Source: Candidatus Pacearchaeota archaeon (GTDB lineage: Archaea; Nanobdellota; Nanobdellia; Pacearchaeales; GW2011-AR1). From it: 64,000 nucleotides of DNA. Shown here in pieces: positions 5,653-25,170 of the stretch. The stretch spans positions 12,143-76,142 of the forward strand of contig JAGVXI010000007.1 in the NCBI GenBank assembly GCA_018303855.1, read 5' to 3'. The position numbers and the translations under genes are program-made. Every line of letters starts with the position of its first letter. The first letter of the stretch is position 1. The notes beneath the pieces are model-generated. The model saw only the letters and a list, made by a program, of their open reading frames with translations. It did no database searches and was not told the DNA's origin.

Positions 5653-6240
5653 ATGACGCACAAAACCCACAAAAGAAAAAAGGCGTCGAGAATGCAGGGA
5701 AGAGGCATGGGAACTCATGGGTCAGGTTCAAGAAAAAACAACAGAAAATCTGGGAATAGAGGAGGAAAAGGAATGGCAGGAACTGGAAAAAGAGCTGACC
5801 AGAAAAAAACACTTATAACCAAGCTTTATGGAAATGATTATTTTGGAAAAGAGGGGGTAAAGAGAAAAAAGCCAAAGATAGATGCTATAAACTTAAGGGA
5901 TATTGAACTGAATCTTGGTAATTATCTGAAAAAAGGCATTGCAAAATCATTAAAAGACGGAATTGAAATTGATTTAAGCAATCATAAAATACTTGGTGAT
6001 GGAGATTTAAAACAAAAGTTAATTATAAAAGCCAAGGCTGCTTCAAAAGCATCAATAGACAAAGTAACAAAACTTGGTGGAGAAATTATTTTGCCAAAAC
6101 AAAATAAAAAAGTTAATGATAAAACTACTCAAGAAAGTAATGTTCCAATTAGCAATAAGTCAGAGAAAATCGGGTTAGACCAAAAATTAAAAAGCAAACT
6201 TGCCATAAGAAAGCCAAAAGTTAGCAATAAAGAGGCTTAA
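5653..6240 (+). CDS. rpl15: 50S ribosomal protein uL15, with a Lys-rich C-terminal tail
   Basis: Gly/Arg-rich N-terminus 'RMQGRGMGTHGSGSRKNNRKSGNRGGKGMAGTGKR' is typical of uL15. Confidence 0.85.
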   Translation: MTHKTHKRKKASRMQGRGMGTHGSGSRKNNRKSGNRGGKGMAGTGKRADQKKTLITKLYGNDYFGKEGVKRKKPKIDAINLRDIELNLGNYLKKGIAKSLKDGIEIDLSNHKILGDGDLKQKLIIKAKAASKASIDKVTKLGGEIILPKQNKKVNDKTTQESNVPISNKSEKIGLDQKLKSKLAIRKPKVSNKEA

Positions 6241-6341
6241 GATAATAATATGCAAGCTGGTGATAAAGTGAGTTAATATAATTTAGCCTATATGTTAAAT
6301 AATAAACCTTAAAGCAAGCTAAAAATAATAAAAAATAAAAG

Positions 6342-7805
6342 ATGGATTGGAAAAACATATTTACATTTATTCCAGAAGTTAGAAAATCTGAAGAGAAAAA
6401 ATTAAGTTTTAACATTAAGCTTAAATGGACTTTAATTGTCCTTATCTCTTTTTTTGTTTTGGCTAATATCCCTCTTTTTGGATTATCAAAAAATGCTCTT
6501 GCGAGATTTGAATACTTAGCGATTATACTTGGAACAGAATTTGGCTCTATTATCAGTTTGGGAATTGGGCCTATTGTAATGGCTTCTATTATTTTGCAGT
6601 TGCTGGTAGGAGCAAAAATTCTTAATATTGATACAACAACAAGTGAAGGAAGGAGATTTTTTCAGGGGTTGCAAAAACTTCTGGTCATGTTTTTTATAAT
6701 TTTTGAGGCAACAATTTATGTGGTTATGCAGGGGTTGCAAGCAGATCCTGCTTTGACTTATGGAGTCCAGATATTGATTTTTCAATTAATACTTGGTGGC
6801 TTAGCTATCTTTTATATGGATGATTTAATGCAGAAATGGGGATTTGGCAGTGGAGTTAGCATGTTTATCGCAGCAGGAGTTAGCTGGAATTTGATTGCAA
6901 GAGCTTTCCAGTTTATTGGAAAAGACCCTGTTACAGGGGGAATAATAATTCAGTATAGTGGCAAGATATTTGTGTTTATACAATCTCTTGTAGGTAAAGA
7001 TGTTACTGGCGCAACTTCTGCACTTGCTGCAATTTTAGTTACAATTTTAATATTTCTAATGGTTGTTTGGGCACAGTCTTTGAAAGTAGAAATTCCATTA
7101 TCATTTGGCAGGCTCAGAGGGTATAGCGTCAAATGGCCACTTGTTTTTTTCTATGCAAGTGTTATCCCAGTTATTTTAGTTGCAGCATTAATGGCAAACC
7201 TTCAGTTATTTGGGGGGTTAATGGAAAATGCAGCTCAGCCTTGTTTTAATGATAACAGCATTCTTGACAGAAGTCTTGAAACTTGCACAGGTGGAGCAAA
7301 AATTTCATCTTTTTTTACATTCTTAGGAAAATTTACTGATGGTATTCCAATTGGGGGGTTTGCGTTTTGGATTGGCTCTACAAACATAGTAGACCTTTTA
7401 ATCAGGAAATCTTTTTCAATGATATACTTATGGCAAGCTTTAGTTCACACAATATTTTTTGTAATATTTGCGACACTATTTTCTGTATTTTGGGTAAAAA
7501 CTGCTAATATAGATTCAAAAGCACAGGCAAAAAATATTATGGCTTCTGGACTACAAGTTTCTGGGTTTAGGCAAGATGAAAGAGTTTTAGAGAGCATATT
7601 AGATAGATATATTATGCCCTTAACAGTAATGGGCGGTGCAGCTGTAGGACTTCTTGCTTCACTTACAGATTTATTTGGGGCTTTGGTAAGCGGAACAGCA
7701 ATGCTACTGGTTATTATGATTATGTTCCAATTCTATCAAAACATTGCTAAACAGCACGAAGTCGATATGCACCCTGCAGTAAGAAAGTTTATGGGTGGGG
7801 GATAA
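6342..7805 (+). CDS. secY: preprotein translocase subunit SecY
   Basis: 487-aa protein with 10 TM segments. It follows rpl15 as in all archaeal spc operons. Confidence 0.9.
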   Translation: MDWKNIFTFIPEVRKSEEKKLSFNIKLKWTLIVLISFFVLANIPLFGLSKNALARFEYLAIILGTEFGSIISLGIGPIVMASIILQLLVGAKILNIDTTTSEGRRFFQGLQKLLVMFFIIFEATIYVVMQGLQADPALTYGVQILIFQLILGGLAIFYMDDLMQKWGFGSGVSMFIAAGVSWNLIARAFQFIGKDPVTGGIIIQYSGKIFVFIQSLVGKDVTGATSALAAILVTILIFLMVVWAQSLKVEIPLSFGRLRGYSVKWPLVFFYASVIPVILVAALMANLQLFGGLMENAAQPCFNDNSILDRSLETCTGGAKISSFFTFLGKFTDGIPIGGFAFWIGSTNIVDLLIRKSFSMIYLWQALVHTIFFVIFATLFSVFWVKTANIDSKAQAKNIMASGLQVSGFRQDERVLESILDRYIMPLTVMGGAAVGLLASLTDLFGALVSGTAMLLVIMIMFQFYQNIAKQHEVDMHPAVRKFMGGG

Positions 7806-7998
7806 GTTTGATTTGAAAAAGTTAGCAAATTTTTAATATTTATTCAAAATACCACTAAATAAAATCAGTTAATATATTCTAACTATTAGACGCTAATTAT
7901 AAGATATACTATCCTAAATATAGGGACATCAAGGTTTAAAACATATAAAAAAGCCCAAACTTTAAAAACTAATTTTTGCTTAGACAATAAGATAAAAA

Positions 7999-8403
7999 AT
8001 GGGAATTGTAGGATTAATGGCTGTTTATCCAAAGCTAAGTGTGATTATGCTTTCTTTTTTAGTCACACTTGTAATGACTCTTGTCACAAAAAAGTTTACC
8101 AATCAAAACCGAATGAAAGAGCTTAAAGAAATACAAAAAAAGTGCAAAATTGATTTAAAAGACGCTAAAAACGACCCTGAAAAAATCAAAAAGATTAATG
8201 TTCAAATGATGGAATGCTCTATGGAATTAATGAAGCATTCATTCAAACCAATGTTTTATACATTTATTCCGTTAATTTTATTTTTTTGGTGGATAAAGGG
8301 AGTTTATGTTGAAACAACTTTGGCAAGCACATGGATTTGGTGGTATATTGGCGCAAGCATTGTTTCCAGCATGATACTCAGGAAAGTTTTGAAAGTTGCG
8401 TGA
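7999..8403 (+). CDS. small integral membrane protein of the DUF106 / YidC-Oxa1-EMC3-like family (minimal form)
   Basis: Topology is TM1, then a KE-rich coiled-coil loop, then TM2 and TM3, all in 134 aa. In archaea the spc operon is typically followed by adk, DUF106 and cmk; here only the DUF106-like gene is present. Confidence 0.5.
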   Translation: MGIVGLMAVYPKLSVIMLSFLVTLVMTLVTKKFTNQNRMKELKEIQKKCKIDLKDAKNDPEKIKKINVQMMECSMELMKHSFKPMFYTFIPLILFFWWIKGVYVETTLASTWIWWYIGASIVSSMILRKVLKVA

Positions 8404-8550
8404 TGAATTACTCCAGATATAATAGGTTAATAAGCTCAATAATAATTCTTATAGTTGGAAGTTGTTAGTGGTTACAGACTTAAAAGATTAAATGGCGGAT
8501 AAATTATCTTTAAAGAAACCTTTAAAAGTCCTTTTTCTTTTTGATGAATC

Positions 8551-8952
8551 ATGAACCAAGAAGAGATTATTTATTATTTAAGCATGATAGAACAGCAAGC
8601 TCGCCAATTGCAAGAGCAATTGCAATCAATTGAGCAAGGGGTAATTGAATTAGCTTCGCTTAACTTAGGATTAAATGAACTTGAAGGCAAAAAAGACAAA
8701 GAGATATTCGCTCCCCTTGGCAGAGGCATATTTGTGAAAGCAAAATTAGTATCTGAAAAGCTAAATGTTGACATTGGTGGGAAAAACTTTGTTGAGAAAA
8801 GCATCCCAGATACAAAAAAGCTAATCCAAGAACAAATAAAAAAGCTTGAAGAGATAAAAAAAGAGTTGATGAAAGAGCTCGAAAAGCTTAATAAAGATGC
8901 AGAAAAAATTATTGAAGAAGCTAAAAAAGAGGCCGAAAAGAAAAAGAGATGA
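8551..8952 (+). CDS. pfdA: prefoldin alpha subunit-like protein
   Basis: Coiled coil, then two beta-hairpin motifs ('IFAPLGRGIFVKAKL', 'LNVDIGGKNFVEKS'), then a second coiled coil, as in prefoldin alpha. Confidence 0.55.
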   Translation: MNQEEIIYYLSMIEQQARQLQEQLQSIEQGVIELASLNLGLNELEGKKDKEIFAPLGRGIFVKAKLVSEKLNVDIGGKNFVEKSIPDTKKLIQEQIKKLEEIKKELMKELEKLNKDAEKIIEEAKKEAEKKKR

Positions 8953-9178
8953 TGATTAATTATGTTTCTCTATTAATTAAGTGATATTTTATCCAACATC
9001 AGCTTCCATTTAACATGCATTACTTCTATTGATAATTCCCTTAATTAGGGCACTTGTTTTGGGAATTTCCCAGATAGATAATTCTGAAAAGAAAGTGTTA
9101 CGATTAACAGAATTATCTATAATTAAATAAAAAGTGCTTACATTAATTATTTAAAGATACCTTCTTTCCATTATAAAT

Positions 9179-10039
9179 ATGTTAGAAATGCTGACTAATC
9201 CAAAGCAAGGTGTGCAAGGAGCTTGGAAGATGTTTTTTGTGGGGTTAGTTTATGCTTCACTTTCTCTTTTATTAGTGCACTGGCTTTTTTCCAATGACCC
9301 AGCATTATCAAAAGCTTCTGGAATGATTGTTGTTGCATTTTGCGTAATGTTTACCCTGCCATTTATGTATTTTTTAATTAAGCAAGAAGAACAGCAAGAT
9401 GAAGAAATTGAAGGCTTCCTTGGAGTCTGGAAAGCCCACAGCGATGCATTATTCGCATTTATGTGGCTGTTTTTTGGATTTATTATTGCATTTTCATTCT
9501 GGTATATACTTCTGCAAAACTCCATGTTATTTAACTTTCAGATTGAAACTTACTGTGTGATTAACAGTCCTCATAATGTAGAAGACTGCGTAGCACAAAA
9601 TGATTTTTCAAAACCTATAATTTATACAGGAGCTGCAACAAAAGAACTTAGATTCTTATCTATCCTGGAAAATAATGTGTACGTTATGATTTTTACGCTT
9701 ATTTTTTCATTAATTTTTGGTGCAGGAGCAATATTTGTTTTGGCATGGAATGCTTCTGTGATTAGTGCTGCAATAGGGATTTTTACACAATATCAAATAA
9801 AAGAAATCCCTCTGGGAATTTTAAGATATATGATTCACGGATTTCCAGAGATTGCAGCATACTTTATAGCAGCTCTTGCAGGAGGAATTGTAGGCGTAGG
9901 AATTATTAGGAATGGAATGATAAGCAAGAAATTCCTGAGGATAATGGAAAATTCTGTTATTTTATTATTTATAGCAATAATTATTCTGGCTTTTGCAGCT
10001 TTTATTGAGGTTTATGTTACGCATGCTATATTGAGCTAG
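9179..10039 (+). CDS. polytopic membrane protein, possibly DUF95/SpoIIM-like
   Basis: Multiple hydrophobic segments and an 'AWNASVISAAIG' motif. The family assignment is weak. Confidence 0.45.
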   Translation: MLEMLTNPKQGVQGAWKMFFVGLVYASLSLLLVHWLFSNDPALSKASGMIVVAFCVMFTLPFMYFLIKQEEQQDEEIEGFLGVWKAHSDALFAFMWLFFGFIIAFSFWYILLQNSMLFNFQIETYCVINSPHNVEDCVAQNDFSKPIIYTGAATKELRFLSILENNVYVMIFTLIFSLIFGAGAIFVLAWNASVISAAIGIFTQYQIKEIPLGILRYMIHGFPEIAAYFIAALAGGIVGVGIIRNGMISKKFLRIMENSVILLFIAIIILAFAAFIEVYVTHAILS

Positions 10040-10209
10040 AAGTATTGAAAGTGGGAGAGTTTAATGTAAAAAGCTTGTTTTATAACCTGATATAACTACT
10101 GCAATTTATCCACAAAATAAAGTGTATTTGGGAGGTTTATTTACATACTACAGAAGATATAAAAAATACAGCCGAAATACTTAAATATCCCCCTTTTTTG
10201 ATAAATGAC

Positions 10210-10347
10210 ATGAAGTTTATTTGCAAAAATTGCAGTTATAGATTTGAAGCTGAGACAGATCAAACATCAAAAGTATGCCCTTATTGCGGGAAAATGATGG
10301 TGGAACAAGAGCCAGATGCTGATGACTTGCTAAAAGACATAGATTAA
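10210..10347 (+). CDS. small zinc-ribbon protein (45 aa) not present in the supplied ORF track
   Basis: Manual translation gives MKFICKNCSYRFEAETDQTSKVCPYCGKMMVEQEPDADDLLKDID, with CxxC...CxxC. It lies immediately upstream of aglB. Confidence 0.4.
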   Translation: MKFICKNCSYRFEAETDQTSKVCPYCGKMMVEQEPDADDLLKDID

Positions 10348-10364
10348 TTCTTAAAGAGGAATAT

Positions 10365-13358
10365 ATGGAAGAAGAAACAGAAAAAAATTTAGAAGAGGCA
10401 AGAGGAGAAAGCTTAATCAAATTTCTCAAACAAAAAAAAGATTTTGCGGTTTATATTGCCTTGGCGTTTATTGTTTGGCTGGGGGTTTATATTAGAACAA
10501 GAAACATGACTATAAATTCAAATACAGGGCAGCCTAAATTGTGGGATATCACAACAAATTCGTGGACACTTGGACCTGATTTAGACCCTTTTCTTTTTCT
10601 GCGATGGATGGAGTATATTTTAGAACATGGAAAACTTATGGCTGTTGATGTGATGAGATATATTCCTTTGGGGTATGATACTGCTGGTGAAATGAGATTA
10701 CTCCCTTACATGATGGCGTGGACTCATAAAATACTTGAATTCCTGTCATTAACAGACAGCATAACTTATTCTGCTGTAATTTTCCCTGTGATTATGTTTA
10801 TTCCCACAACTATTGCTTTTTTTCTTTTTGCGAGAAAAATATTTTATAAAGAAGAAAGGAGCATTCAAAATTTGATTGCATTGCTTGCAACAGCAATTTT
10901 TGTTTTAATTCCTTCTTTATTGCCAAGGACAATTGCAGGGATTCCTGAAAAAGAGTCTGTTGCTTTTGGTTTCATGTTTCTTTCTTTTTATTTTTTTATG
11001 GAGGCATTTACATCAGAAAAACTAAGAAAAGGATTAATCTTTGGGGTTCTGGCAGGGTTATCAAATGGTTTAATGGCTTTAGTATGGGGCGGAACCTCAT
11101 TTATTTTTATGGCAATTGGGGCTTCTGTTCTTTTATCCTTTGTTCTTGGAAAAGTAAAAAAAGAAAAATTTTATATCTATTGCTTATGGTTATTTGCTTC
11201 TTTCGCCTTAATGATTCCGTTTTCAACAAGGTATATGCCAATCCTTTTGATTAAATCAGTGTTTATTGGTTTTGCAATTGGAGTATTTGCCCTAATTGGA
11301 CTGAGTTTTTTATTAATGAAGATTAAAAAAGTAAATGAGTTTTCAGAAAAAACAAAAATTCCAAAAGAATTATTTTATGTTGTTGTTTCCTTTATAATTA
11401 TACTTCTTATAATTTTAATAACCCCTGCATTTGGACCAGATTTTATTTTTGCCCAGATAAATAAAGTAAAAATAAATTTAGTTGAACCATTTAACTCAAG
11501 GTTTAGCCTTACTGTCGCAGAAAATAAACAGCCATTTTTCAGCTCTGAATGGAAAGATAATTTTGGACCAATTGTTAAAGGAATTCCATTGTATTTCTGG
11601 ATGTTTTTTGCCGGTTCTGTTTTTTTATTCAGCAGGTTAGTATCAAACTTAAAAAGAAGCAGAAAGATAATCTTAATATCAGGCTGTACAATATTTTTAT
11701 TTTCAATTATATTCAGCAGGTATTCTGCAAGCTTTTTTACCGAGCCTGGATTAAATAGAACAATCCAAACATTATACTTTGGGGGGTTTTTATTATTATT
11801 AATAGGAATAATTATCTATTCTTATACCATAAGAAAACAAGACAAAGGGCTTTTCTACTTATCTGTCATCCCATTTATGCAAGCATTTTTTGTTTTAATG
11901 TTCTTTACTAAAAAAAACCCAATGAACGGAACCAACATAGGAAGTTTGTTTGTCCAATTTGGGGGGTGGATTTTTCTATTTGCAATTATCTTTTATGTTT
12001 ATTGGAAACAATATAGGGAAGGGGAAATGCTAGAATTAAAAAAAATTAATTTTTCATACATTTTGTACTTTGTTGTGCTAGTCCTTGGAATAATTGGAGC
12101 AAGAGGAGCAATAAGATTAATGATGTTCCTTGGAGCAGTTAGTCCTGCTGTAATTGCTTTTTTTGTTATTAAAACCAGCCAGATTTATTTTCAAGAAAAA
12201 AAAGAGTTGAGAAAAGTTTTTTTTGGAATTGCAGCAATACTCTTAATTATCATAACAATTCTAATTATCATCGGAAATCCACTTTTATTTTTCAAAGGAA
12301 TAGGATTTAATGATTGGAATGGGAATTTCCAGCAAGTTAGGTATACTGCTGAATTTTATGTTCCCGGACCATATCAATGGCAATGGCAAAGAGCAATGGA
12401 GTGGGTTAGGACAAATACGCCGGAAAATGCAGTATTTGCTCATTGGTGGGATTATGGTTATTGGTTGCAAAGTATTGGAAAAAGAGCTACTGTACTGGAT
12501 GGAGGAAATTCTATTGTTTATTGGAATCATCTTCTTGGGAGGCATGTTCTTACTGGGAGCGATGAGAGAACTGCCCTTGAATTTCTTTATACGCACAATG
12601 CAACACATTTATTAATTGATTCAACTGATATTGGGAAATATACTGCGTTCTCAAGCATTGGAGCAGATGAAAATTATGACAGATTTTCCTGGATTCCTAG
12701 TTTTATAATGGATGACAGCAAAACCCAAGAGGCAAAAGATGGGACAACTTACTGGTATGTTGGAGGAGCAACAGGAATTGACGAGGATATAACCTGGAAT
12801 GACAATGGAAAAGAGATATTTTTACCCGGGAGAGAGGCAGTAATTGTGGCGTTTAGCATAAAAACAAAGAGTTCAGGACAGCAATTCTCACAGCCAACTG
12901 CGGTTTTTATTTATGGAGATCAGCAGTATAATATTCCTTTAAGGTACATTTACCTGGATGATACAGGAAAGTTTTCTGATTTTGGTTCTGGATTAGATGC
13001 AGGAGTTTTCATCTTTCCAAAGATAAACAGCATACAGGGGCAGCAGGTTAATATGAATTATCTCGGTGCAGCATTGTACCTAAGTAAAAGAACTATCCAC
13101 TCTCAATTAACAAAACTTTATTTGTTTGATGAAACTTCTCAGTATTTTAAATTAGCACATACTCAAGACAGCATGTTTATTGAAAGTCTCAAAAGTAGTG
13201 GGATGAATATTAAGCATTTCGTGGATTACCAAGGATTGCAAGGCCCAATTAAAATCTGGCAAGTTAATTATCCTGCTGATATGGAAAAAAATCCAGCTTT
13301 TTTAGAAAAAGATTTTCCAGACATTAGGTTAAAAACCCCTCAACCAGGAGAATATTGA
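10365..13358 (+). CDS. aglB: archaeal oligosaccharyltransferase AglB/STT3, paralogue 1
   Basis: 997-aa polytopic N-terminal half plus a soluble C-terminal half. Catalytic 'WWDYGYWL' motif (AHWWDYGYWLQ) is present. A 'DLDP' (DxD) lies in the first external loop. Confidence 0.85.
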   Translation: MEEETEKNLEEARGESLIKFLKQKKDFAVYIALAFIVWLGVYIRTRNMTINSNTGQPKLWDITTNSWTLGPDLDPFLFLRWMEYILEHGKLMAVDVMRYIPLGYDTAGEMRLLPYMMAWTHKILEFLSLTDSITYSAVIFPVIMFIPTTIAFFLFARKIFYKEERSIQNLIALLATAIFVLIPSLLPRTIAGIPEKESVAFGFMFLSFYFFMEAFTSEKLRKGLIFGVLAGLSNGLMALVWGGTSFIFMAIGASVLLSFVLGKVKKEKFYIYCLWLFASFALMIPFSTRYMPILLIKSVFIGFAIGVFALIGLSFLLMKIKKVNEFSEKTKIPKELFYVVVSFIIILLIILITPAFGPDFIFAQINKVKINLVEPFNSRFSLTVAENKQPFFSSEWKDNFGPIVKGIPLYFWMFFAGSVFLFSRLVSNLKRSRKIILISGCTIFLFSIIFSRYSASFFTEPGLNRTIQTLYFGGFLLLLIGIIIYSYTIRKQDKGLFYLSVIPFMQAFFVLMFFTKKNPMNGTNIGSLFVQFGGWIFLFAIIFYVYWKQYREGEMLELKKINFSYILYFVVLVLGIIGARGAIRLMMFLGAVSPAVIAFFVIKTSQIYFQEKKELRKVFFGIAAILLIIITILIIIGNPLLFFKGIGFNDWNGNFQQVRYTAEFYVPGPYQWQWQRAMEWVRTNTPENAVFAHWWDYGYWLQSIGKRATVLDGGNSIVYWNHLLGRHVLTGSDERTALEFLYTHNATHLLIDSTDIGKYTAFSSIGADENYDRFSWIPSFIMDDSKTQEAKDGTTYWYVGGATGIDEDITWNDNGKEIFLPGREAVIVAFSIKTKSSGQQFSQPTAVFIYGDQQYNIPLRYIYLDDTGKFSDFGSGLDAGVFIFPKINSIQGQQVNMNYLGAALYLSKRTIHSQLTKLYLFDETSQYFKLAHTQDSMFIESLKSSGMNIKHFVDYQGLQGPIKIWQVNYPADMEKNPAFLEKDFPDIRLKTPQPGEY
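10710..10804 (+). repeat. 95-nt segment near-identical (2 mismatches) to 13789..13883 in the second aglB
   Basis: Direct comparison of 'atgatggcgtggactcataaaatacttgaattcctgtcattaacagacagcataacttattctgctgtaattttccctgtgattatgtttattcc' against its counterpart. Confidence 0.9.
12381..12470 (+). repeat. About 90-nt segment covering the WWDYG region, near-identical to 15223..15312 (60 nt identical, then 3 mismatches)
   Basis: 'caatggcaaagagcaatggagtgggttaggacaaatacgccggaaaatgcagtatttgct' is identical in both paralogues. A further 43-nt identical patch exists at 10412..10454 and 13491..13533. Confidence 0.9.
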
Positions 13359-13359
13359 A

Positions 13360-16188
13360 ATGACTGAAGAAAATTTTTCAATGGGAGGGGTTGATATTAG
13401 CTTTTCTGCAAAACCTGAACAAGCCTTAGAAAATAAAAAGAGCAGAATATTATCCAGCAAAAAAAGCATAGAAGAAAAAAGATTATGGAGCTTAATCAAA
13501 TTTCTCAAACAAAAAAAAGATTTTGCGGTTTATGTTGCTCTAGCTCTTATCATCTGGTTTGGGATTTATCTTAGGACACTTAATCTTAAAATAAACCCAT
13601 TAACAGGAAAACCATTTTTATGGAATTTTGCAACAAATGATTGGGCTATTGGTATGGAGTTTGACCCTTTTCTTTTCCTGCGATGGATGGAGTATATTGT
13701 TGCACACGGGAGATTAATGGTTATAGATACAATGCGATATGCACCTTTTGGGTATGATACTTCAAAAGAAACAGCGCTTTTTCCATATATGATGGCATGG
13801 ACTCATAAAATACTTGAATTCCTATCATTAACAGACAGCATAACTTATTCTGCTGTAATTTTCCCTGTGATTATGTTTATTCCAACAATTCTTATTCTTT
13901 TTCTGCTTACAAAAAAAGTATTTTACAAAGAGAGCAAAATTACCCAAAATTTGATTGCACTGCTTGCAACTATATTTTTTGCTCTCTTACCAATTTTATT
14001 GTCTAAAACAGGTGCAGGAGTAGCAGATAAAGAAAGTGCTGCTTTGTTATTCATGCTCCTGTCATTTTACTTTTTTTTAGAGGCGTTTAAGTCAGAAAAG
14101 TTCAAAAGAGGCTTGATTTTTGGGATTTTAGCAGGTATTTCAACAGGCTTAATGGCACTGCTTTGGGGCGGTGTTGTGTTTGTGTTTATTCCTGTATCAT
14201 TATCTGTTTTTATCTATTTTCTAATTGGAAAAGTTGAATTAAAAGAGTTTGTCATTTATTTTTCTTGGCTTGCTGTTTCTTTTTTACTCATGTTTAGTTT
14301 TTCCAATAGATACTCACTACAGAATATAACTATACCTGGAAGCCCTGAATCAATGCTAATTATTCTTTTTATTCTAGGCACAAGCTTTTTTTTCTTAAAA
14401 AACAAGAAAACCGCAAGTATAATTAACAGGGTGAAACTTCCTGCACAATTGACTTCAGTTATAATCTCAGGCATTGTACTGGTTATTTTAGCAGTCGTTA
14501 TCTTTGGGCTGAATACTATCATCAGCCCAATAAGTTTTTTAAAGAACTTTTTAGCGAATCCTGCTACAACCAGATTTGGGGTAAGTATTTCAGAAAACAG
14601 ACAACCATATTTTTTAGAAGATTGGGTTGTTTACTTTGGGCCAATTATTGGGGTTCCTTTTTATTTTTACATATTTTTCTTTGGGGTAATCCTTTTATTT
14701 TGGAATATGCTTAAACCTCTTAAGAAAATACACAAGATAACTTTAACCTTGAGCTATTTTATTTTTATCTGGGCAGTTATATTCACAAGATATTCTGAAA
14801 TAGGAGTTTTAAATGGAACGAACGGTGTGAGTTTATTTTTATATGCTTTGGGGCCAATAATTTTCTTTGGGACTATAATTTATACTTATATAAAAATTTA
14901 TAAAGAAAAAGAATTTTTTGAATTTGAAGGCATAAACTTCTCTTACTTATTTTATATTATTCTGTTTACATTCAGCATATTTGCTGCAAGAAGTGCTATA
15001 AGAATATTTTTAGTAGTAGGGGCAATAAGCGTGATTCCTGCTTCTTTTTTCACCATAAAAATATTCCAAAAATACTTTACAGAAAAAGAAGAACTTAACA
15101 AATTTTTTATGGGATTGCTAAGTTTAGCCCTTATTATTTCCCTCTTATTTAGTCTTTATTTTATTTACCAAAAGGATAAAAAAGTTATGCTAGAAGAGCT
15201 TATTACAACTAAATATGTACAACAATGGCAAAGAGCAATGGAGTGGGTTAGGACAAATACGCCGGAAAATGCAGTATTTGCTGCCTGGTGGGATTATGGT
15301 TATTGGCTGCAAACTCGCGGGAGAAGAACTACTATTTTGGATGGTGGAAACTCAATTCCTTATTGGAATCATCTTCTTGGGAAATATGCTCTTACTGGAA
15401 ACGATGAAAACAAAGCATTAGAATTTCTTTACACGCACAATGCAACGCATTTATTAATAGATTTAACAGATATTAAAAAGTATGCTGCAATTTCAGCAAT
15501 TGGCTCAAATGAAGATTATGACAGATTTTCCCAGATTACTCGATTTAACTTAGAAAAAGAAAAAATTTCTAATTTTGGCAATCAGACGCTCTTGCTTTAT
15601 CCTGGAGAATCTCAAACCTATGAGGATATAATATGGAATTTTGATGGGAAAGAGGTTTTGTTTCCAGCATATTTAACTCAGATTAAAGGTTTTGCTTTGA
15701 TTAAAGAAAAAGAAGGAAAAATTGTAAGAGTAGAAATTGTATTATCTGCACAAAACAAAGACTATGCAATTCCCTTAAGGTATGTTTATATAAGTTCTGA
15801 AAATAAACTTATTGATTTAGGTTCTGGATTAGAATCAATGTTTTTTATCTACCCTTCAGTATCACGAGAAGAGGCTATGGTTGATCTTAATATTTTTGGA
15901 GCAGCACTTTATATTCCTAAAAAAGCAAGGGAGTCAAATTTAGTACAACTTTATTTACTGGGGGGTGATTCAGAATATTTTAATCTTGAGCATATAGAAA
16001 GTGACAACATAATTGCAGCATGGAGGGAAGATGTTGCTAATGATATAGGGGAGTTTATTTTTTATGAAAACGATTTTCACGGCCCAATTAAAATTTGGAG
16101 TATTAATTATCCGCAAGATATAAAAACCAATCCAGAGTTTCTAAAAACAGAATTCCCAAGCAGGGGATTAGAATTGGCTAAACTATAA
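13360..16188 (+). CDS. aglB: archaeal oligosaccharyltransferase AglB/STT3, paralogue 2
   Basis: 942 aa with 'AAWWDYGYWLQ'. Same architecture as paralogue 1. The N-terminal 'LIKFLKQKKDFAVY' is shared with paralogue 1. Confidence 0.85.
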   Translation: MTEENFSMGGVDISFSAKPEQALENKKSRILSSKKSIEEKRLWSLIKFLKQKKDFAVYVALALIIWFGIYLRTLNLKINPLTGKPFLWNFATNDWAIGMEFDPFLFLRWMEYIVAHGRLMVIDTMRYAPFGYDTSKETALFPYMMAWTHKILEFLSLTDSITYSAVIFPVIMFIPTILILFLLTKKVFYKESKITQNLIALLATIFFALLPILLSKTGAGVADKESAALLFMLLSFYFFLEAFKSEKFKRGLIFGILAGISTGLMALLWGGVVFVFIPVSLSVFIYFLIGKVELKEFVIYFSWLAVSFLLMFSFSNRYSLQNITIPGSPESMLIILFILGTSFFFLKNKKTASIINRVKLPAQLTSVIISGIVLVILAVVIFGLNTIISPISFLKNFLANPATTRFGVSISENRQPYFLEDWVVYFGPIIGVPFYFYIFFFGVILLFWNMLKPLKKIHKITLTLSYFIFIWAVIFTRYSEIGVLNGTNGVSLFLYALGPIIFFGTIIYTYIKIYKEKEFFEFEGINFSYLFYIILFTFSIFAARSAIRIFLVVGAISVIPASFFTIKIFQKYFTEKEELNKFFMGLLSLALIISLLFSLYFIYQKDKKVMLEELITTKYVQQWQRAMEWVRTNTPENAVFAAWWDYGYWLQTRGRRTTILDGGNSIPYWNHLLGKYALTGNDENKALEFLYTHNATHLLIDLTDIKKYAAISAIGSNEDYDRFSQITRFNLEKEKISNFGNQTLLLYPGESQTYEDIIWNFDGKEVLFPAYLTQIKGFALIKEKEGKIVRVEIVLSAQNKDYAIPLRYVYISSENKLIDLGSGLESMFFIYPSVSREEAMVDLNIFGAALYIPKKARESNLVQLYLLGGDSEYFNLEHIESDNIIAAWREDVANDIGEFIFYENDFHGPIKIWSINYPQDIKTNPEFLKTEFPSRGLELAKL

Positions 16189-16210
16189 TTATCTTATAAA
16201 AAATATTAAA

Positions 16211-17233
16211 ATGGAATATTTATTACTTGCATCAATACTCTTAAGCTTTTTGATAACCCTATTTTTTCTTCCTGCCTGGATTAAAAAAGCCATAAAAATC
16301 GGGCTTATATGGGAGAATATGAATAAGTATAATCACCCCAAAAATATTGCTGGTTCTGGAGGGCTCATAGTAGTTTTTGGATTTGTTTTAGGGGCTTTAT
16401 CTTATATTGCAGTTAAAACTTTTATTTTAAGGACAGATATAACAACTGTTGAAATATTTGCATTACTTGTAACAATACTAATGGCAGGACTTGTTGGGCT
16501 GATAGATGATTTTCTTGGCTGGAGGCATGGAGGAATGTCTGCAAAGCTGAGAATATTTCTAATTTTCTTTGCTGCAATTCCATTAATGGTTATTAATGCA
16601 GGCGAATCTTTGATAAGTTTTCCGTTTATAGGGCAATTTAATCTTGGGTTAATCTACCCCCTGGTTTTTATTCCAATAGGAATAATTGGAGCATCAACAA
16701 CTTTTAACTTTCTTGCTGGCTATAATGGATTAGAAGCAAGCCAAGGCATTTTAATTTTATCTGCATTGGCAACAGTAACATGGTTTACTAATAACAGATG
16801 GTTAAGCTTAATTGCATTCTGCATGGTTGCATCTTTGTTTGCTTTTTATTTGTTTAACAAATATCCTGCGAAAGTTCTTCCAGGGGATATTCTTACCTAT
16901 TCTGTCGGAGCATTAATTGCAATTATGGCTATTTTAGGCAATATTGAGAGAATTGCAATATTCTTTTTCATCCCATATATATTAGAAACCGGGCTAAAAT
17001 TACGGGGAAGATTGAAAATACAAAGTTTTGGAAAAGTCAATGCAGACGACAGTTTGGATGTTCCTTTTAAAAAATTTTATGGACTTGAGCATATTGCCAT
17101 TTATATTCTAAAAAAGATTAAAATAAATGGAAAAGTGTATGAGAAGGACGTTGTATTTTTACTGAATACTTTTCAGGTAGCAATAATTATAGCTGGGTTG
17201 ATAATTTTTAGGAATTCAATATTTAAAATATAA
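16211..17233 (+). CDS. phospho-HexNAc transferase of the MraY/WecA/GPT (Glycos_transf_4) family, AglH/Alg7-like. It is likely the first step on dolichol phosphate.
   Basis: Polytopic. 'GLIDDFLGW' and 'NFLAGYNGLEA' motifs are characteristic of the family. Confidence 0.75.
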   Translation: MEYLLLASILLSFLITLFFLPAWIKKAIKIGLIWENMNKYNHPKNIAGSGGLIVVFGFVLGALSYIAVKTFILRTDITTVEIFALLVTILMAGLVGLIDDFLGWRHGGMSAKLRIFLIFFAAIPLMVINAGESLISFPFIGQFNLGLIYPLVFIPIGIIGASTTFNFLAGYNGLEASQGILILSALATVTWFTNNRWLSLIAFCMVASLFAFYLFNKYPAKVLPGDILTYSVGALIAIMAILGNIERIAIFFFIPYILETGLKLRGRLKIQSFGKVNADDSLDVPFKKFYGLEHIAIYILKKIKINGKVYEKDVVFLLNTFQVAIIIAGLIIFRNSIFKI

Positions 17234-17398
17234 TATAATGCTAAATTAATAATCAAACTTTATATTGATGGCAAAACCTTATTAAACATATTTGCTAAGA
17301 TTTTAGATTAACAAGCCGGGTTAAAAGTTGTAAATTGCACAGACTAAAATTAAACTAAAGTTTATCCTGCATAAACATTAAGATAAATAAGAACTAAA

Positions 17399-18619
17399 AT
17401 GAAAAAATTCCTGTCAAGTGAATTTGGAAAGGGGGCGTTTGTATTGTTTATAACTATAAATATCTTCAATTTTCTCAATTTTATTTTTCATTTTTCTATG
17501 GGAAGACTTCTTGGACCAGCAGATTATGGGGTGTTAGTTGTTCTAATGTCAATAGTCTACCTTTTCAGCATACCTACTGAAACAATACAGAACTTAATTT
17601 CAAGATACACCTCCAAATTTAATGTGAAAAATGAACACGGGAAAATAAAATTTATGATGAAAAAATCTTTGGGGAAAGTTTTTAAGGTTTCTTTCTGGGT
17701 TTTTGTTGTGGCGGTGCTAATTTCATTTCCATTAGCATCATTTTTAAGGATAAATTTTTGGCTTTTATTAATTGTGGACATTTTGATTCTTTATTCATTT
17801 GCTGAACCAGTTTTAAGGGGAGTGCTTCAGGGGAGAAAAAGATTCGGAATGCTTGGAATAAGCATGATACTCGAATCAACTTTTAAGCTTTTGTTTTCAA
17901 TTTCCTTTGTAATATTTGGAATAAATGTTTTTGGGGCAATTTTAGGGGTAGTTTTAGGCGGGGTTGCAAGTTTTGCATTTACCTTATTCTTTAACAGGGA
18001 CATACTTAAAAACAAAGAAGAAAAAACTTCATTTGATAAAATTCAGCAAACCAGCATTCCCTATATAGTTTCAATGTTTGTGATATTTTTAATTTTGAGC
18101 ACCGATATAATCTTGGCAAAAAGATTTTTTTCTGCTGAAACAGCAGGAATGTATGCTGTTTTGTCAATCTTAGGAAAGATTATATTCTTTGGGACATTTG
18201 CTATAAGTAAAGCAATGTTTCCTTTAACATCTGAAAGACACGATATAAATAAAGATTCCTCTCAATTATTTAAAAAATCATTACTCTTGGTGTTTATCTT
18301 GTGCTTAGTTGCTGTTTTTGCCTACTTAATCATTCCTGAACTAATTATATGGATTTTATATGGAAACCAGTATACTTCTGTAGCGAACCTGCTTATTTAT
18401 TCAGCAATTGCATTTAGCTTTTTGTCTTTAAGCAATGTTATAATCGTTTATGCTCTATCTATAAACAAGATAACAAATTATTTTTATTTGCCTATATTTT
18501 TTATAATCCAGATTACACTGCTTTTTATATTTCATAATACTCTTTTTGAGTATATTTTGGCTTTTATGGTTTCAACTATAATAATGTTTATAGGCACGCT
18601 ATTTTTTCTAAAAAAGTGA
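17399..18619 (+). CDS. MOP-superfamily polysaccharide/oligosaccharide flippase (Wzx/AglR-like)
   Basis: 406 aa, about 12 predicted TM helices, no catalytic motifs. It sits in the glycan cluster. Confidence 0.55.
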   Translation: MKKFLSSEFGKGAFVLFITINIFNFLNFIFHFSMGRLLGPADYGVLVVLMSIVYLFSIPTETIQNLISRYTSKFNVKNEHGKIKFMMKKSLGKVFKVSFWVFVVAVLISFPLASFLRINFWLLLIVDILILYSFAEPVLRGVLQGRKRFGMLGISMILESTFKLLFSISFVIFGINVFGAILGVVLGGVASFAFTLFFNRDILKNKEEKTSFDKIQQTSIPYIVSMFVIFLILSTDIILAKRFFSAETAGMYAVLSILGKIIFFGTFAISKAMFPLTSERHDINKDSSQLFKKSLLLVFILCLVAVFAYLIIPELIIWILYGNQYTSVANLLIYSAIAFSFLSLSNVIIVYALSINKITNYFYLPIFFIIQITLLFIFHNTLFEYILAFMVSTIIMFIGTLFFLKK

Positions 18620-18765
18620 AAACCTGACTCAATTAAAATTAAAATGCAAATAGAAAACTTCAAAATTAATATAATTTTAACAGCAGTCGAAAATTTACAT
18701 TTTCGATGTTTTCAATCAATTAAATCCTTACAAAATACATCCGGCACAAACCGGATTTAATTAAA

Positions 18766-19557
18766 ATGAATAATACGTTGAGCATAATCATTCCTGCATA
18801 TAACGAAGAAAATAGAATCGGAAAGACATTAGAAGCATATGGTTCTTTTTTTAAACGCATAAAAAAGAGCAAGAAGATTAAAAAGTTTGAAATCCTTGTT
18901 GTTTTAAATGCCTGCAAGGATGACACCATTGGAGTTATAAAAAAATTTAAAAAAAAATACAAAGAAATAAGATTTTTAGATTTTGAACAGGGGGGCAAGG
19001 GATTTGCAATTATAGAGGGATTTAGACATGCGTCAGCAAGAGGAATTGAATTAATAGGATTTGTTGATGCTGATATGGCTACTTCACCTGAATCTTTTTA
19101 TGACTTGGTTAAAAAAATAAACGGATATGATGGAATTATTGCAAGCAGATGGAAAAATGAATCTGTTATTAAAACCAAGCAGACATTTTTAAGGATAATA
19201 ACAAGCAGGGGATTTAACCTTATAGTAAGGATTGTGCTGCATTTGCTATATTCTGACACACAATGCGGGGCTAAATTATTCAAAAAAAAAGCTATAGAAA
19301 AAATAATTAATGAAAAAATTATCACAGAATGGGCTTTTGATGTTGACTTATTATACAATCTAAAACAAAATAATTTTAAAATTAAGGAAATTCCGACAGT
19401 TTGGGAAGATAAAAGAGGTTCAAAATTAAATTTAATGAAAGTTCCTCTTCAAATGTTCGCTTCTGTGGTAAGATTAAGATTAGTCCATTCTCCATTTAAA
19501 TTTATAGTTAGACTGTATGATAAATTACCAGAAAGGATGAAAATTAATAATTTATAA
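18766..19557 (+). CDS. GT2 glycosyltransferase, dolichyl-phosphate hexose synthase-like (DPM1/AglD/AglJ type)
   Basis: 'LSIIIPAYNEENRI' and a 'DADMA' DxD motif. No C-terminal TM region. Confidence 0.7.
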   Translation: MNNTLSIIIPAYNEENRIGKTLEAYGSFFKRIKKSKKIKKFEILVVLNACKDDTIGVIKKFKKKYKEIRFLDFEQGGKGFAIIEGFRHASARGIELIGFVDADMATSPESFYDLVKKINGYDGIIASRWKNESVIKTKQTFLRIITSRGFNLIVRIVLHLLYSDTQCGAKLFKKKAIEKIINEKIITEWAFDVDLLYNLKQNNFKIKEIPTVWEDKRGSKLNLMKVPLQMFASVVRLRLVHSPFKFIVRLYDKLPERMKINNL

Positions 19558-23331: not shown

Positions 23332-25170
23332 TTAGCTATCCTTTATCGTCCAAACATCACCAAAAGTAAAAGGGGAAATTTCATCTGTGTCTGGTTCTTG
23401 GGGATTGTAAGTTTTGTCCATTGTATGCAGGATAATTGCTTTTTCCCCCCCAAGAACCATATAGCCATGCCAATAACCTGGGGGAATTTTGATTAATATT
23501 GGATTTGTTTCTCCTATAACAAATGTTTTAAAATCTGCTTCTCTACTGCCCCCTGCTTTTTCTTTAGCAACAACATATTTTATATTTCCTTTAATGCAAG
23601 TTGTATAGTCTGTCTGCTTGCTGTGGCGATGCAAACCTTTGATAACCCCTGGGTATAAAACAGAAACTAGCACTTGCCCAAATTTTCCGTCAAACAATTC
23701 ATCATCTTGCCTCAAAGTTTCAAATAAATATCCCTGCTCATCTGAAAATAGTTTTAATGGTTTTATTCTAATGTCTGAAAAAGTATTTTTAACTTCTGAA
23801 GGCAGATTATTAATAAATGTATTACTATTAGCTGTTGTGCTGTTTATACTCTGTTCTATTTGCGCATATTGTTTAATGACATTATCACCCCCAGTAAATT
23901 CTGGCTCTAAAATTCTTGCTTTTGGGTAATGTACAATAAATCTCCCGCCTCTTGCTAAAAAATCTGTTTCTTTTTTCATTATTTCTGCAGCATGATTCCA
24001 AGCTGCAAGCAAAGCATAGTCAACATTTTTATCATTGTGAAAATGCTCTGGAGAAACAATAGGGATATGTTTTCCTGGGCTAAGTAATCCTTGCTTGTAT
24101 GGTGTAGAATCAGAAATATAATCTAAAATTTCTCTTCCTACATTGCAATAATTTTGAATAATTGTTCCTTTTGAAGCAGCTGCATAACCAACAATTTTTT
24201 TATCTTGAGATTTAAGATGCAACAACAAATTCTGCAATTCTTTTTTCGATTGAGCAGTATTTTCAGCAAACTGAATATACGGATTAATAGTATCAATGCC
24301 TTTTTGTTTTTCTTGCTCTAAAAGCTGCAAAAATCTTTGGGTTTTGGGATAAGTCCCACGTTTGCATGCATAAACTCTCATTGAACCTCCATGAACCCAT
24401 TGTCTTTCTGCATCAAAAATTTCAAAACCATGCATCCTATAAAGATTTGACAAAGAAGTTAAAGAAAAATACCAGATATGCTCATCATATATTTGGTCAT
24501 AAGAAGTTTTTTCCAAAATATCAAGAATATAAGGGTCTTCTGTTATAAACACCCCATTATCATCTAACAGAGCATTCAATCCGCGCATTAAATCATGCAA
24601 ATCAATTATATTTAATGTTACATTTGTTGAAAGAACTACCCTAAACCTGCCTCTTGACAAAACAATACTTTTTGCAAGCTGTTCTGAAAAAAACTGAGTA
24701 ATTGTCTCTATTCCCTGCTGCTGGGCGATTTCTGCAACATTTTGCGATGGTTCAATTCCCAAAACATTTCTTCTATTTAAAAATGATTTTAGCATAATTC
24801 CATCATTGCTACCAATTTCTAAAACCTTTGGATTTCTGTCAAGAAAACGTTGCTCAACTTCGTGTGCGAGATCTGCAAAATGCTCCTGCATTGCCACTGA
24901 AGTGGATGAAAAAAAAGCATAGTGGGTCTTGCCTGTTTCATCTGGAACAATATATTTGGCATAAGGGACGATGTTTATAAGTTGAACCATATTACAATTT
25001 TCACAAAAACCAACATCCATATTATAAACATATTCAACAAAGCCTGGCTTTTGCAATTCAGAGGGCTTAAGAAAAGCATTTGCAACAGGCATTTTGCCGA
25101 ATGAAATAAACTTCACCAAATTTTGAGTTTTACACAAAGGGCAATGCTTTTTTTCATCAAAAACAACCAT
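23332..25170 (-). CDS. fusion protein: TylCIII-like NDP-hexose C-methyltransferase (Zn-binding domain, SAM-MTase and C-MT C-terminal domain) plus a C-terminal RmlC-like cupin (dTDP-sugar 3,5-epimerase/3,4-ketoisomerase fold)
   Basis: N-terminus 'CPLCKTQNL...FCENCNMVQL', 'VLEIGSNDGIML' and 'KIVGYAAASKGTI' make up the C-MT architecture. The last ~190 aa, 'FETLRQDD...KGLHRH...IKIPPGYWHGYMVLG...YNPQEPDTDEISP', match the RmlC/FdtA cupin family. Confidence 0.65.
   Translation of the reverse strand: MVVFDEKKHCPLCKTQNLVKFISFGKMPVANAFLKPSELQKPGFVEYVYNMDVGFCENCNMVQLINIVPYAKYIVPDETGKTHYAFFSSTSVAMQEHFADLAHEVEQRFLDRNPKVLEIGSNDGIMLKSFLNRRNVLGIEPSQNVAEIAQQQGIETITQFFSEQLAKSIVLSRGRFRVVLSTNVTLNIIDLHDLMRGLNALLDDNGVFITEDPYILDILEKTSYDQIYDEHIWYFSLTSLSNLYRMHGFEIFDAERQWVHGGSMRVYACKRGTYPKTQRFLQLLEQEKQKGIDTINPYIQFAENTAQSKKELQNLLLHLKSQDKKIVGYAAASKGTIIQNYCNVGREILDYISDSTPYKQGLLSPGKHIPIVSPEHFHNDKNVDYALLAAWNHAAEIMKKETDFLARGGRFIVHYPKARILEPEFTGGDNVIKQYAQIEQSINSTTANSNTFINNLPSEVKNTFSDIRIKPLKLFSDEQGYLFETLRQDDELFDGKFGQVLVSVLYPGVIKGLHRHSKQTDYTTCIKGNIKYVVAKEKAGGSREADFKTFVIGETNPILIKIPPGYWHGYMVLGGEKAIILHTMDKTYNPQEPDTDEISPFTFGDVWTIKDS

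Follow-up and report, generated by a model that had tools for sequence, protein, structure and literature searches.

How can two neighbouring genes have diverged over most of their length and be nearly identical, base for base, in a few short patches? The question is raised by a locus of an uncultivated archaeon of the Pacearchaeota (DPANN). In the window, that is, the whole stretch of 64,000 nucleotides analysed (contig JAGVXI010000007.1 of assembly GCA_018303855.1), two full-length STT3/AglB genes lie head-to-tail with 1 nt between them. The original prediction of tandem AglB paralogues was borne out: both open reading frames are present, paralogue 1 (p1, 997 aa) at 10365..13358 (+) and paralogue 2 (p2, 942 aa) at 13360..16188 (+), and their matches to Pfam STT3 (PF02516; p1, 50.9 bits; p2, 67.9 bits) exceed the cut-off of 24.5 bits. 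The proteins are diverged overall, as had been claimed, with 50% amino-acid identity between p1 and p2 and 62% identity at the nucleotide level.

The gene pair and its neighbourhood

Both proteins match solved STT3 and AglB chains and contain numerous hydrophobic segments, 15 in p1 and 13 in p2. They are predicted to be catalytic subunits of the STT3/AglB/PglB type, which would transfer a lipid-linked glycan to the Asn of a sequon. An insertion at 11733..11924 (+), covering about residues 457-520 of p1 and adding two hydrophobic segments, is missing from p2 and from all 80 orthologues. The junction from the p1 stop to the p2 start reads TGA A ATG, and AGGAG, a Shine-Dalgarno-like sequence, is found 10 nt 5' of the p2 start. 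The two genes are co-oriented and probably co-transcribed. The host genome has a GC content of 31%.

The pair is placed between SpoIIM and a GT4 phosphosugar transferase in a conserved N-glycosylation cluster, where the gene order around aglB is SecY-EMC3-prefoldin-SpoIIM-AglB-GT4-flippase-GT2. Of 69 related loci, 65 have GT4 directly after a single AglB; here, p2 is inserted between the two. A second aglB copy was present in none of the 80 related loci.

Origin of the downstream copy

All 80 genome loci and 44 database proteins were closer to p1 than to p2. Some BLAST matches had appeared closer to p2; these were split HSPs caused by the p1 insertion, and the percent identity was always higher to p1. 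The best match of p1 in the genome scan was 54% identical, and no orthologue of p2 above 48% identity was found among 5.8 billion proteins. The metagenome scan with p2 gave only distant AglB/STT3 relatives among the matches listed (best segments 22-57% identical, partial) and no sister locus. No sister genome carrying orthologues of both paralogues was found, and orthologue comparison was possible for p1 only. One further protein (P0009, 927 aa) is a truncated variant 99% identical to p1; it is uninformative about conversion because its patches are unchanged.

In a neighbour-joining tree with the patches masked, p2 fell inside the clade of p1 and the related loci L001 and L003, and a clade of at most seven tips was recovered in 88 of 100 bootstraps. 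The p2 branch (0.62) was about twice as long as that of p1 (0.32). In every 80-residue window p2 was closer to the near relatives of p1 than to the far ones, and outside the patches L001 and L003 were at least as close to it as p1. Since p2 tracks the near relatives of p1 in all windows and belongs to the same clade, we rejected the idea that p2 is an ancient paralogue or a xenologue that p1 has homogenised in part. Together with the conserved gene order, the AglB-GT4 adjacency and the lack of a second copy in the 80 loci, these results show that p2 is a lineage-specific, fast-evolving tandem duplicate that arose in place.

Near-identical patches between the paralogues

Three patches stand out from this diverged background, all of them in register between the two genes. 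Patch 1 is a 45-nt match with no mismatch (10410..10454 (+) in p1, 13489..13533 (+) in p2), encoding SLIKFLKQKKDFAVY, the cytoplasmic tail and the start of TM1; the 43 nt predicted at 10412..10454 and 13491..13533 match exactly and fall inside it. Patch 2 extends over 95 nt (10710..10804 (+) and 13789..13883 (+)) and encodes MMAWTHKILEFLSLTDSITYSAVIFPVIMFIP, the TM2-TM3 hairpin. Its coordinates and its mismatch count of two were exactly as predicted; the mismatches are at 10718 and 10745, and its exact runs are 26 and 59 nt long. Patch 3, foreseen as about 90 nt around the WWDYG motif, covers 90 nt with four mismatches (12381..12470 (+) and 15223..15312 (+)), encodes QWQRAMEWVRTNTPENAVFAHWWDYGYWLQ, and has exact runs of 60 and 21 nt. 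The patch edges are abrupt: 13 of the 21 positions 5' of 12381 are mismatched, and 60 exact matches follow.

Three of the four mismatches of patch 3 fill one codon directly 5' of WWDYG, which is CAT (His693) at 12441..12443 (+) in p1 and GCC (Ala642) at 15283..15285 (+) in p2. The His is present in 80 of 80 orthologues. In a post hoc test, the probability that, of four mismatches placed at random in a tract of 30 codons, three occupy a single codon was about 0.001.

A further 36-nt match with one mismatch (10584..10619 (+) and 13663..13698 (+)), encoding DPFLFLRWMEYI, is a possible fourth tract, older or shorter than the others. It lies directly 3' of the three EL1 residues at which the copies diverge (PDL/MEF), and the Met of its RWMEY is found only in p1 and p2. 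The evidence for this tract is weak, because its 90-nt bin holds 25 exact runs of at least 25 nt among 3,110 orthologue pairs.

Significance of the mosaic

Inside the patches, whose limits were picked after the data had been seen, the NG86 pS was 0.115, compared with 0.631 (saturated) outside. Amino-acid identity between p1 and p2 was 99% in the patches and 45% outside, and p2 was 43-47% identical to the nearest orthologues of p1. Where the two proteins have an identical, degenerate amino acid, their codons also agreed at 62 of 66 sites inside the patches and at 219 of 362 outside. Codon usage alone predicts about 50%, i.e., 33 of the 66 patch sites. Same-codon runs of 25, 18, and 16 sites were reached by 55, 26, and 5 of 20,000 shuffles, respectively.

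As an empirical null we used the 3,110 orthologue pairs with 40-60% amino-acid identity. The three longest exact in-register runs summed to 164 nt for p1 and p2, compared with a maximum of 106 among the orthologue pairs, which makes the paralogues the extreme of 3,111 pairs. Exact runs of at least 25 nt were found once in the 90-nt bin of patch 1 and twice in that of patch 2 among the 3,110 pairs. The longest common substring anywhere in the genes was 50 nt, in one orthologue pair. Around WWDYG, orthologue pairs reach 42 nt of exact in-register identity, and bins 12345-12524 contain 239 exact runs of at least 25 nt between orthologues. Patch 3 alone is therefore weaker evidence, since it coincides with a hot spot of chance identity. 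The excess over selection plus codon bias is clear for patches 1 and 2 and marginal for patch 3.

We then considered the encoded residues. The patches contain amino-acid states common to p1 and p2 that are absent or rare in the 80 orthologues, such as the R, E, and T of QWQRAMEWVRT in patch 3. In patches 1 and 2 the identity of orthologues to the shared sequence is only 44-47%, and many columns show 0-30%. Within patch 2, close orthologues have 63% identity among themselves and 47% to the shared sequence. These shared-derived residues, with the 99% in-patch identity, support concerted evolution, and not purifying selection, as the probable source of the patch identity. The proposal of a shared constrained catalytic core thus holds only in part: patch 3 does cover the catalytic motif WWDYG, but patches 1 and 2 lie in the poorly conserved N-terminal tail/TM1 and in the TM2-TM3 hairpin. 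Nor does p2 itself support it, as this copy departs most from the family in the residues flanking every catalytic motif.

Remodelled active-site surroundings in p2

While p1 holds the clade-invariant PDLDP, PEKE, TVAEN, HWWDYG, and DIGKY, p2 keeps all catalytic residues and replaces, at all five motifs, adjacent residues that 77-80 of 80 orthologues have in common. The replacements are EFDP for PDLDP, ADKE for PEKE, SISEN for TVAEN, A-WWDYG for H-WWDYG, and DIKKY for DIGKY. Relaxed constraint is a possible alternative cause of such changes in conserved neighbours.

The EL1 motif is P-D-L-D-P in p1 (D72-L-D74-P; 10575..10589 (+)), as in 77 of the 77 orthologues with a residue there, and M-E-F-D-P in p2 (E100-F-D102-P; 13654..13668 (+)). 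The predicted E in place of the first D is thus present in p2. The catalytic Asp of EL1 corresponds to yeast D47 (PglB D56), whose role is described in PMC7226087. The change does not appear to signal inactivation, since p2 aligns here with yeast STT3 H-E45-F-D47-P and the catalytic Asp is kept (PMC7226087). In EL2, p1 has P-E-K-E-S (E195-K-E197; 10944..10958 (+)), with P in 80/80 and E in 79/80 orthologues, and the E-K-E form also occurs in 79/80. The p2 counterpart is A-D-K-E-S (14023..14037 (+)), whose D223-K-E225 aligns with the metal-binding D-x-D/E of yeast, D166-N-E168. The EL5 motif reads T-V-A-E-N in p1 (E386; 11511..11525 (+)) and S-I-S-E-N in p2 (E412; 14584..14598 (+)); orthologues have T in 80/80, V in 79/80, A in 79/80, and E in 80/80. 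By motif position only, we take this Glu (TIXE/SVSE) to match PglB E319 and AglB E360. WWDYG is present in both paralogues and aligns to the WWDYG of solved STT3 and AglB chains. The DK motif is D-I-G-K-Y-T-A-F in p1 (D755, K758; 12627..12650 (+)), with G in 80/80 orthologues, and D-I-K-K-Y-A-A-I in p2 (D704, K707; 15469..15492 (+)). The DK (DxxKxxx[M/I]) or MI motif forms the pocket for the +2 Ser/Thr (PMC3703281). At the M/I position of the DK consensus, F is found in p1 and 63/80 orthologues, and Y in 17/80.

Alternative explanations

We weighed other ways in which the mosaic could have come about. An assembly or consensus artefact, with the paralogues collapsed or chimerically joined in the metagenome assembly, deserves next to no credence. 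The scaffold of L084 does start within the exact repeat of 60 nt, at position 12408 of the window, which indicates that the repeat perturbs at least one assembly. However, collapse would merge the genes and not yield two full in-register ORFs, and unique sequence stands on both sides of each patch within less than one read or k-mer length (the patches are shorter than the k of 141 used by one assembler). The same two-gene locus, or the exact p2 protein, occurs on 24 contigs. Four retrieved contigs from different projects (MEGAHIT k141, SPAdes, JGI, and an ANAN16 scaffold) showed no substitution across the genes, scaffold Ns aside; L082 differs only upstream of about 6800 and L084 only by scaffold Ns. 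Since independent assemblies, made in several projects, agree base for base at this locus, the mosaic is not an assembly artefact. A second reading dispenses with recombination and invokes very strong protein selection plus AT-biased codon usage, or selection on an embedded nucleic-acid element. It draws on the WWDYG hot spot and on the roughly half of identical residues that would share a codon through codon bias alone. For patches 1 and 2 it is already contradicted by their poor conservation and by the scarcity of long exact runs there among orthologues; the same-codon count is far above the 33 sites expected, and overall we regard this reading as very improbable. An embedded RNA or a repeated mobile element was rejected as well, as no Rfam family reached its gathering score in the region and no further copy of the patch sequences was found within the window. 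The mosaic might also be read in reverse: the duplication would be recent, and the diverged parts of p2 would have been imported piecemeal from a distant Pacearchaeota AglB by homologous recombination. This would equally give short identical islands in a diverged background, and AglB is indeed a fast-evolving protein in this clade (its identity to L001 is 54%, that of SecY 78%). Yet this reading requires a donor from a lineage outside the present sampling, as EFDP and AWWDYG occur in 0 of the 80 genome orthologues and 44 database proteins and nothing is more than 48% identical to p2. At least four separate imports over more than 90% of the gene would be required, and, compared with orthologues, the sequence shared in the patches is derived in p1 as well. 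We therefore consider the reverse mosaic improbable.

A different objection concerns the function of p2, which could be a decaying, non-functional duplicate under relaxed constraint, its decay slowed by conversion and no new specificity gained. Its branch is twice that of p1, orthologue-invariant residues are replaced, and it has no orthologue elsewhere. Against this, the 942-codon ORF has stayed intact although the genome is AT-rich and thus prone to new stop codons, and its start, with the AGGAG ahead of it, is tightly coupled to the p1 stop. The catalytic and substrate-binding signature residues (D102, D223/E225, E412, WWDYG, and K707 of the DK motif) are all kept, and the substitutions are conservative or as in active eukaryotic STT3 (EFDP, D-x-E, A-WWDYG). 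The dN/dS is well below 1 (about 0.35 outside the patches, where dS is saturated). Decay of p2 is thus unlikely, although it has to be reckoned with.

A probable history of duplication, divergence and conversion

The reading that we prefer, at a probability of about 0.8, combines in-place duplication of aglB, divergence of p2, short-tract conversion, and an active p2 with altered preference. A single aglB would have been duplicated in place, giving two adjacent OST genes. The upstream p1 would have retained the clade-consensus active-site surroundings, while the downstream p2 changed at about twice the rate, to the point of saturation at synonymous sites. Subsequently, non-reciprocal recombination in tracts of about 45-95 nt would have copied at least three in-register segments between the copies, wiping out synonymous and non-synonymous differences within them. 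A point against this model is that it does not account for the start of tracts of 45-95 nt between flanks of only about 60% identity.

Of the claim of ongoing gene conversion, then, conversion between the paralogues stands as the best explanation, but "ongoing" does not, since the sampled contigs are identical across both genes and hold no polymorphism by which current conversion could be shown, dated or oriented. The tracts appear recent only relative to the saturated background. The direction of conversion was tentatively mixed, because the WWDYG tract is p1-like and the TM2-TM3 tract is as far from orthologues as usual p2 sequence; such inferences are based on 15-32 residues.

Most likely, judging from its motifs, p2 is enzymatically active and its preference for donor or acceptor has changed, and it is plausible that p1 and p2 differ in specificity. 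The His-to-Ala change before WWDYG would have persisted as a three-base island in a converted tract, which is what selection against conversion of this codon would produce. A bolder version, in which p2 is a neofunctionalised OST whose remodelled catalytic shell sets donor, metal or sequon specificity and whose shell codons are shielded from micro-conversion by selection, is possible, at somewhat less than even odds.

Comparison with known systems

Both tandem OST paralogues and interparalogue gene conversion are well-known phenomena. Archaeoglobus fulgidus carries AglB-L, AglB-S1, and AglB-S2 in one genome, and the roles of these paralogues are unknown (PMC3703281). The present genome resembles it in having more than one catalytic OST gene, and p1 and p2 share the canonical DxxK type of Ser/Thr pocket, which fits the rule given in that study. 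The A. fulgidus genes, in contrast, have separate locus tags (AF_0380, AF_0329, and AF_0040) and are 25-68% identical, and no conversion tracts among them are described in PMC3703281. p1 and p2 are directly adjacent, stem from a recent, clade-level duplication in place, and are 45-50% identical.

The tandem STT3A/B/C genes of Trypanosoma brucei have distinct specificities for lipid-linked-glycan donor and peptide acceptor, as was shown experimentally (PMC2722254). They too are single-subunit OST paralogues in tandem and serve as a model for the possible roles of p1 and p2, although the trypanosome is a eukaryote, has three copies, and differs further in that its specificities are demonstrated. 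We did not find gene conversion described for the T. brucei array in PMC2722254.

For prokaryotes, interparalogue (ectopic) conversion or concerted evolution has been documented in 26 long-lasting cases with whole-gene homogenisation (PMC6053082). The present pair is similar in having segments more alike than the overall divergence allows, in short tracts with sharp edges. It differs in that homogenisation is confined to less than 10% of the gene, with free divergence of the remainder, and in its uncultivated DPANN host. The divergent codon inside a converted tract is like the "islands of divergence" reported to persist against conversion (PMC3728101). As gene conversion the pair is clean but ordinary; the active-site surroundings of the second copy are unusually remodelled.

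The locus amounts to a natural experiment, with two OSTs that share a genome, probably an operon, and a downstream glycan-assembly cluster. The two enzymes differ at residues frozen across 80 related species, and other parts of the genes appear to have been rewritten by recombination. Homologous-recombination micro-tracts would thus act in small-genome DPANN archaea. If the specificities of p1 and p2 do differ, the few protected differences would point to positions that tune donor or acceptor choice by OSTs, namely the residue preceding WWDYG, the first acidic residue in each of EL1 and EL2, the TIXE/SVSE triplet, and the residue that precedes the lysine of the DK motif, and these could be of use for glyco-engineering. 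If p2 is indeed neofunctionalised, then this DPANN archaeon, which apparently affords two OSTs in a minimal genome, would offer in the pair a natural map of what determines OST specificity.

Two tandem aglB genes in a Pacearchaeota archaeon

The two aglB genes of this uncultivated Candidatus Pacearchaeota archaeon (DPANN), p1 (10365-13358, +; 997 aa) and p2 (13360-16188, +; 942 aa; NCBI J4225_02200 is its exact protein), lie in the same orientation with a single base between them (TGA A ATG), and a Shine-Dalgarno-like GAGG or AGGAG precedes each. Both ORFs matched Pfam STT3 above the curated cut-off as well as solved STT3 and AglB chains, and a codon alignment gave 50% amino-acid and 62% nucleotide identity. 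No third aglB copy was found within the window, whose GC content is 31%.

An insertion of 61-64 aa in p1 (11733-11924; p1 aa ~457-520), found neither in p2 nor in any of 80 orthologues (single AglB genes of 80 related genomes), adds two hydrophobic, TM-like segments and so brings their number to 15 rather than 13. Its weak similarity to the TM hairpin that comes after it makes an internal duplication its probable origin. A second p1-only insert comprises 15 aa (12264-12308; aa ~634-648). In other reading frames, two ORFs of 101-107 aa, 12285-12608 (-) and 12310-12615 (+), overlap the part of p1 around WWDYG; they are most likely spurious products of locally higher GC content.

Near-identical patches exceed chance expectation

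The original prediction that p1 and p2 share three near-identical segments was confirmed at exact coordinates, all on the + strand: patch 1 (10410-10454 and 13489-13533; 45 nt, no mismatches), patch 2 (10710-10804 and 13789-13883; 95 nt, 2 mismatches) and patch 3 (12381-12470 and 15223-15312; 90 nt, 4 mismatches). Their edges are sharp; just before 12381, for example, the genes differ at 13 of 21 positions. Three of the four patch 3 mismatches fill one codon, CAT/GCC (His/Ala), immediately 5' of WWDYG (probability ~0.001 in a post hoc test), which suggests either that two tracts abut here or that selection opposes conversion of this codon. The patches (10410-10804 and 13489-13883; 12381-12470 and 15223-15312) are also direct repeats, in register and in frame, at a spacing of 2.8-3.1 kb; a recombination event joining two of them would remove the length of one gene and yield a p1/p2 hybrid oligosaccharyltransferase (OST) that stays in frame.

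Because the genome is AT-rich, codon bias alone predicts the same codon at about 50% of identical residues. The same codon was used at 62 of 66 such residues inside the patches versus 219 of 362 outside, and only 55, 26 and 5 of 20,000 shuffles equalled the observed runs of 25, 18 and 16 sites with a shared codon. NG86 pS was 0.115 in the patches versus 0.631 outside, the latter equivalent to an effectively saturated dS of ~1.4. As an empirical null, exact in-register runs were scored in 3,110 pairs of the orthologues at 40-60% amino-acid identity; the top three runs of p1-p2 summed to 164 nt, the extreme value, the next highest pair reaching 106. Patches 1 and 2 are strong evidence for non-chance identity and patch 3 is supportive, because exact runs of at least 25 nt occurred in the areas of the former in 1-2 of the 3,110 pairs, whereas exact matches are frequent around WWDYG, with in-register runs up to 42 nt.

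The mosaic is real rather than artefactual. Twenty-four contigs carry the exact p2 protein; in the four that were retrieved, which differ in project and assembler (MEGAHIT k141, SPAdes, a JGI assembly and an ANAN16 scaffold), the two-gene locus shows no substitution across p1 and p2. The repeat in patch 3 breaks at least one assembly graph, as ANAN16 scaffold_289 starts at window position 12408, within the 60-nt exact repeat, the expected behaviour of a real repeat. No further copies of the patch sequences were found elsewhere in the window, and no RNA family was detected in the p1/p2 region.

Contig ERZ4902915 NODE_1715 is identical to the window from about 6800 onward and diverges within and upstream of SecY (~6330-6800), 131 of its 132 differences falling in 6000-6999. 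Its ribosomal-protein operon contains additional genes (MazG, GTP cyclohydrolase II), and the contig represents a recombinant strain or else a chimera.

p2 arose in place

The order SecY, EMC3/TMCO1-like insertase, prefoldin, SpoIIM-like, AglB, GT4 (AglH-like), flippase and GT2 (window 6342-19557) is conserved across Pacearchaeota (30 related-genome loci, L001-L030), and the translocon, insertase and OST genes are thus linked. SpoIIM precedes AglB in 61 of 71 loci, in 65 of 69 the gene immediately after the single AglB is GT4, and none of 80 loci has a second aglB copy. The duplication arose in place, as p2 lies exactly between the otherwise adjacent AglB and GT4. Relative to L001, AglB (54% identity) is far less conserved than SecY (78%), SpoIIM (77%) or GT4 (68%). 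Downstream of the AglB pair lies a series of GT2 and methyltransferase genes, and at its end a 612-aa protein (23332-25170, -) matching Pfam methyltransferase (Methyltransf_13/14/23), dTDP-sugar isomerase and Polysacc_synt_C families. This unusual fusion presumably acts in glycan modification.

All homologues found were nearer to p1 than to p2, and no p2 relative above 48% identity was found among 5.8 billion proteins. In an NJ tree with patches masked, p2 falls in a small clade with p1, L001 and L003, on a branch twice as long as that of p1; the smallest clade holding p1 and p2 had at most 7 tips in 88 of 100 bootstraps. In every 80-residue window p2 was nearer to p1's close relatives than to distant ones. 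By this placement and affinity, p2 is a fast-evolving local duplicate and neither an ancient paralogue nor a foreign gene.

p2 retains its catalytic signatures

All catalytic signatures are retained in p2, but residues next to them are replaced at positions that do not vary in 77-80 of the 80 orthologues. Where the orthologues and p1 have GPDLDP (EL1), AGIPEKE (EL2), TVAEN (EL5), HWWDYG and DIGKYxAF (DK), p2 has GMEFDP, AGVADKE, SISEN, AWWDYG and DIKKYAAI; among 45 database proteins, EFDP and AWWDYG occur in p2 only. The previously noted E in EL1 is indeed there, and aligns with E45 of yeast STT3 (E45-F-D47-P), whose EL1 and EL2 residues have described roles (PMC7226087). Since the catalytic Asp is kept and D-K-E is the aligned counterpart of yeast D166-N-E168, the D to E change does not suggest inactivation. 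Both proteins keep the same Lys-type DK pocket, in line with the rule given in PMC3703281.

Discussion

The most likely account, to which we assign a probability of about 0.8, is short-tract interparalogue gene conversion: an in-place tandem duplication of aglB gave p1 and p2, and conversion between them would have produced the patches. An assembly artefact is contradicted by the independent assemblies. Were the patches due to selection alone, patches 1 and 2 would be left unexplained. There p1 and p2 share residues missing from most orthologues (AWTHKILEFL and MFIPT versus AWF(H/Y)..LSFF and MFALT), and in patch 3 the R, E and T of QWQRAMEWVRT are common to both. With patches masked, p1-p2 identity is 45%, no higher than that of p2 to p1's nearest orthologues (43-47%). 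Judged from these comparisons, purifying selection does not account for the patches, and the likeness appears to reflect concerted evolution restricted to short segments. If the duplication were recent and foreign segments had then been imported into p2, the donor would have to be an unsampled one with p2's unique motifs. Decay of p2 is disfavoured by its intact ORF and retained catalytic residues.

Gene conversion may have run in both directions, on samples of 15-32 residues: the shared sequence is p1-like in patch 3 (similarity to close orthologues 0.82, vs 0.83 among these) and p2-like in patch 2 (0.47 vs 0.63). Close orthologues resemble p1 in the flanks as much as they resemble each other, and p2 much less. 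The proposal of a shared, constrained catalytic core holds only in part; patches 1 and 2 fall in segments of poor conservation, the N-terminal tail/TM1 and the TM2-TM3 hairpin, and p2 differs most immediately around the catalytic residues.

By analogy with the STT3 genes of T. brucei, likewise in tandem (PMC2722254), a donor or acceptor specificity of p2 differing from that of p1 is plausible. Multiple AglB paralogues and tandem OST arrays are already known, as is concerted evolution of prokaryotic paralogues (PMC6053082). The pair is a new, well-resolved DPANN instance of tandem OST paralogues with concerted evolution, and its differences provide natural variation in active-site-shell residues that may prove useful.
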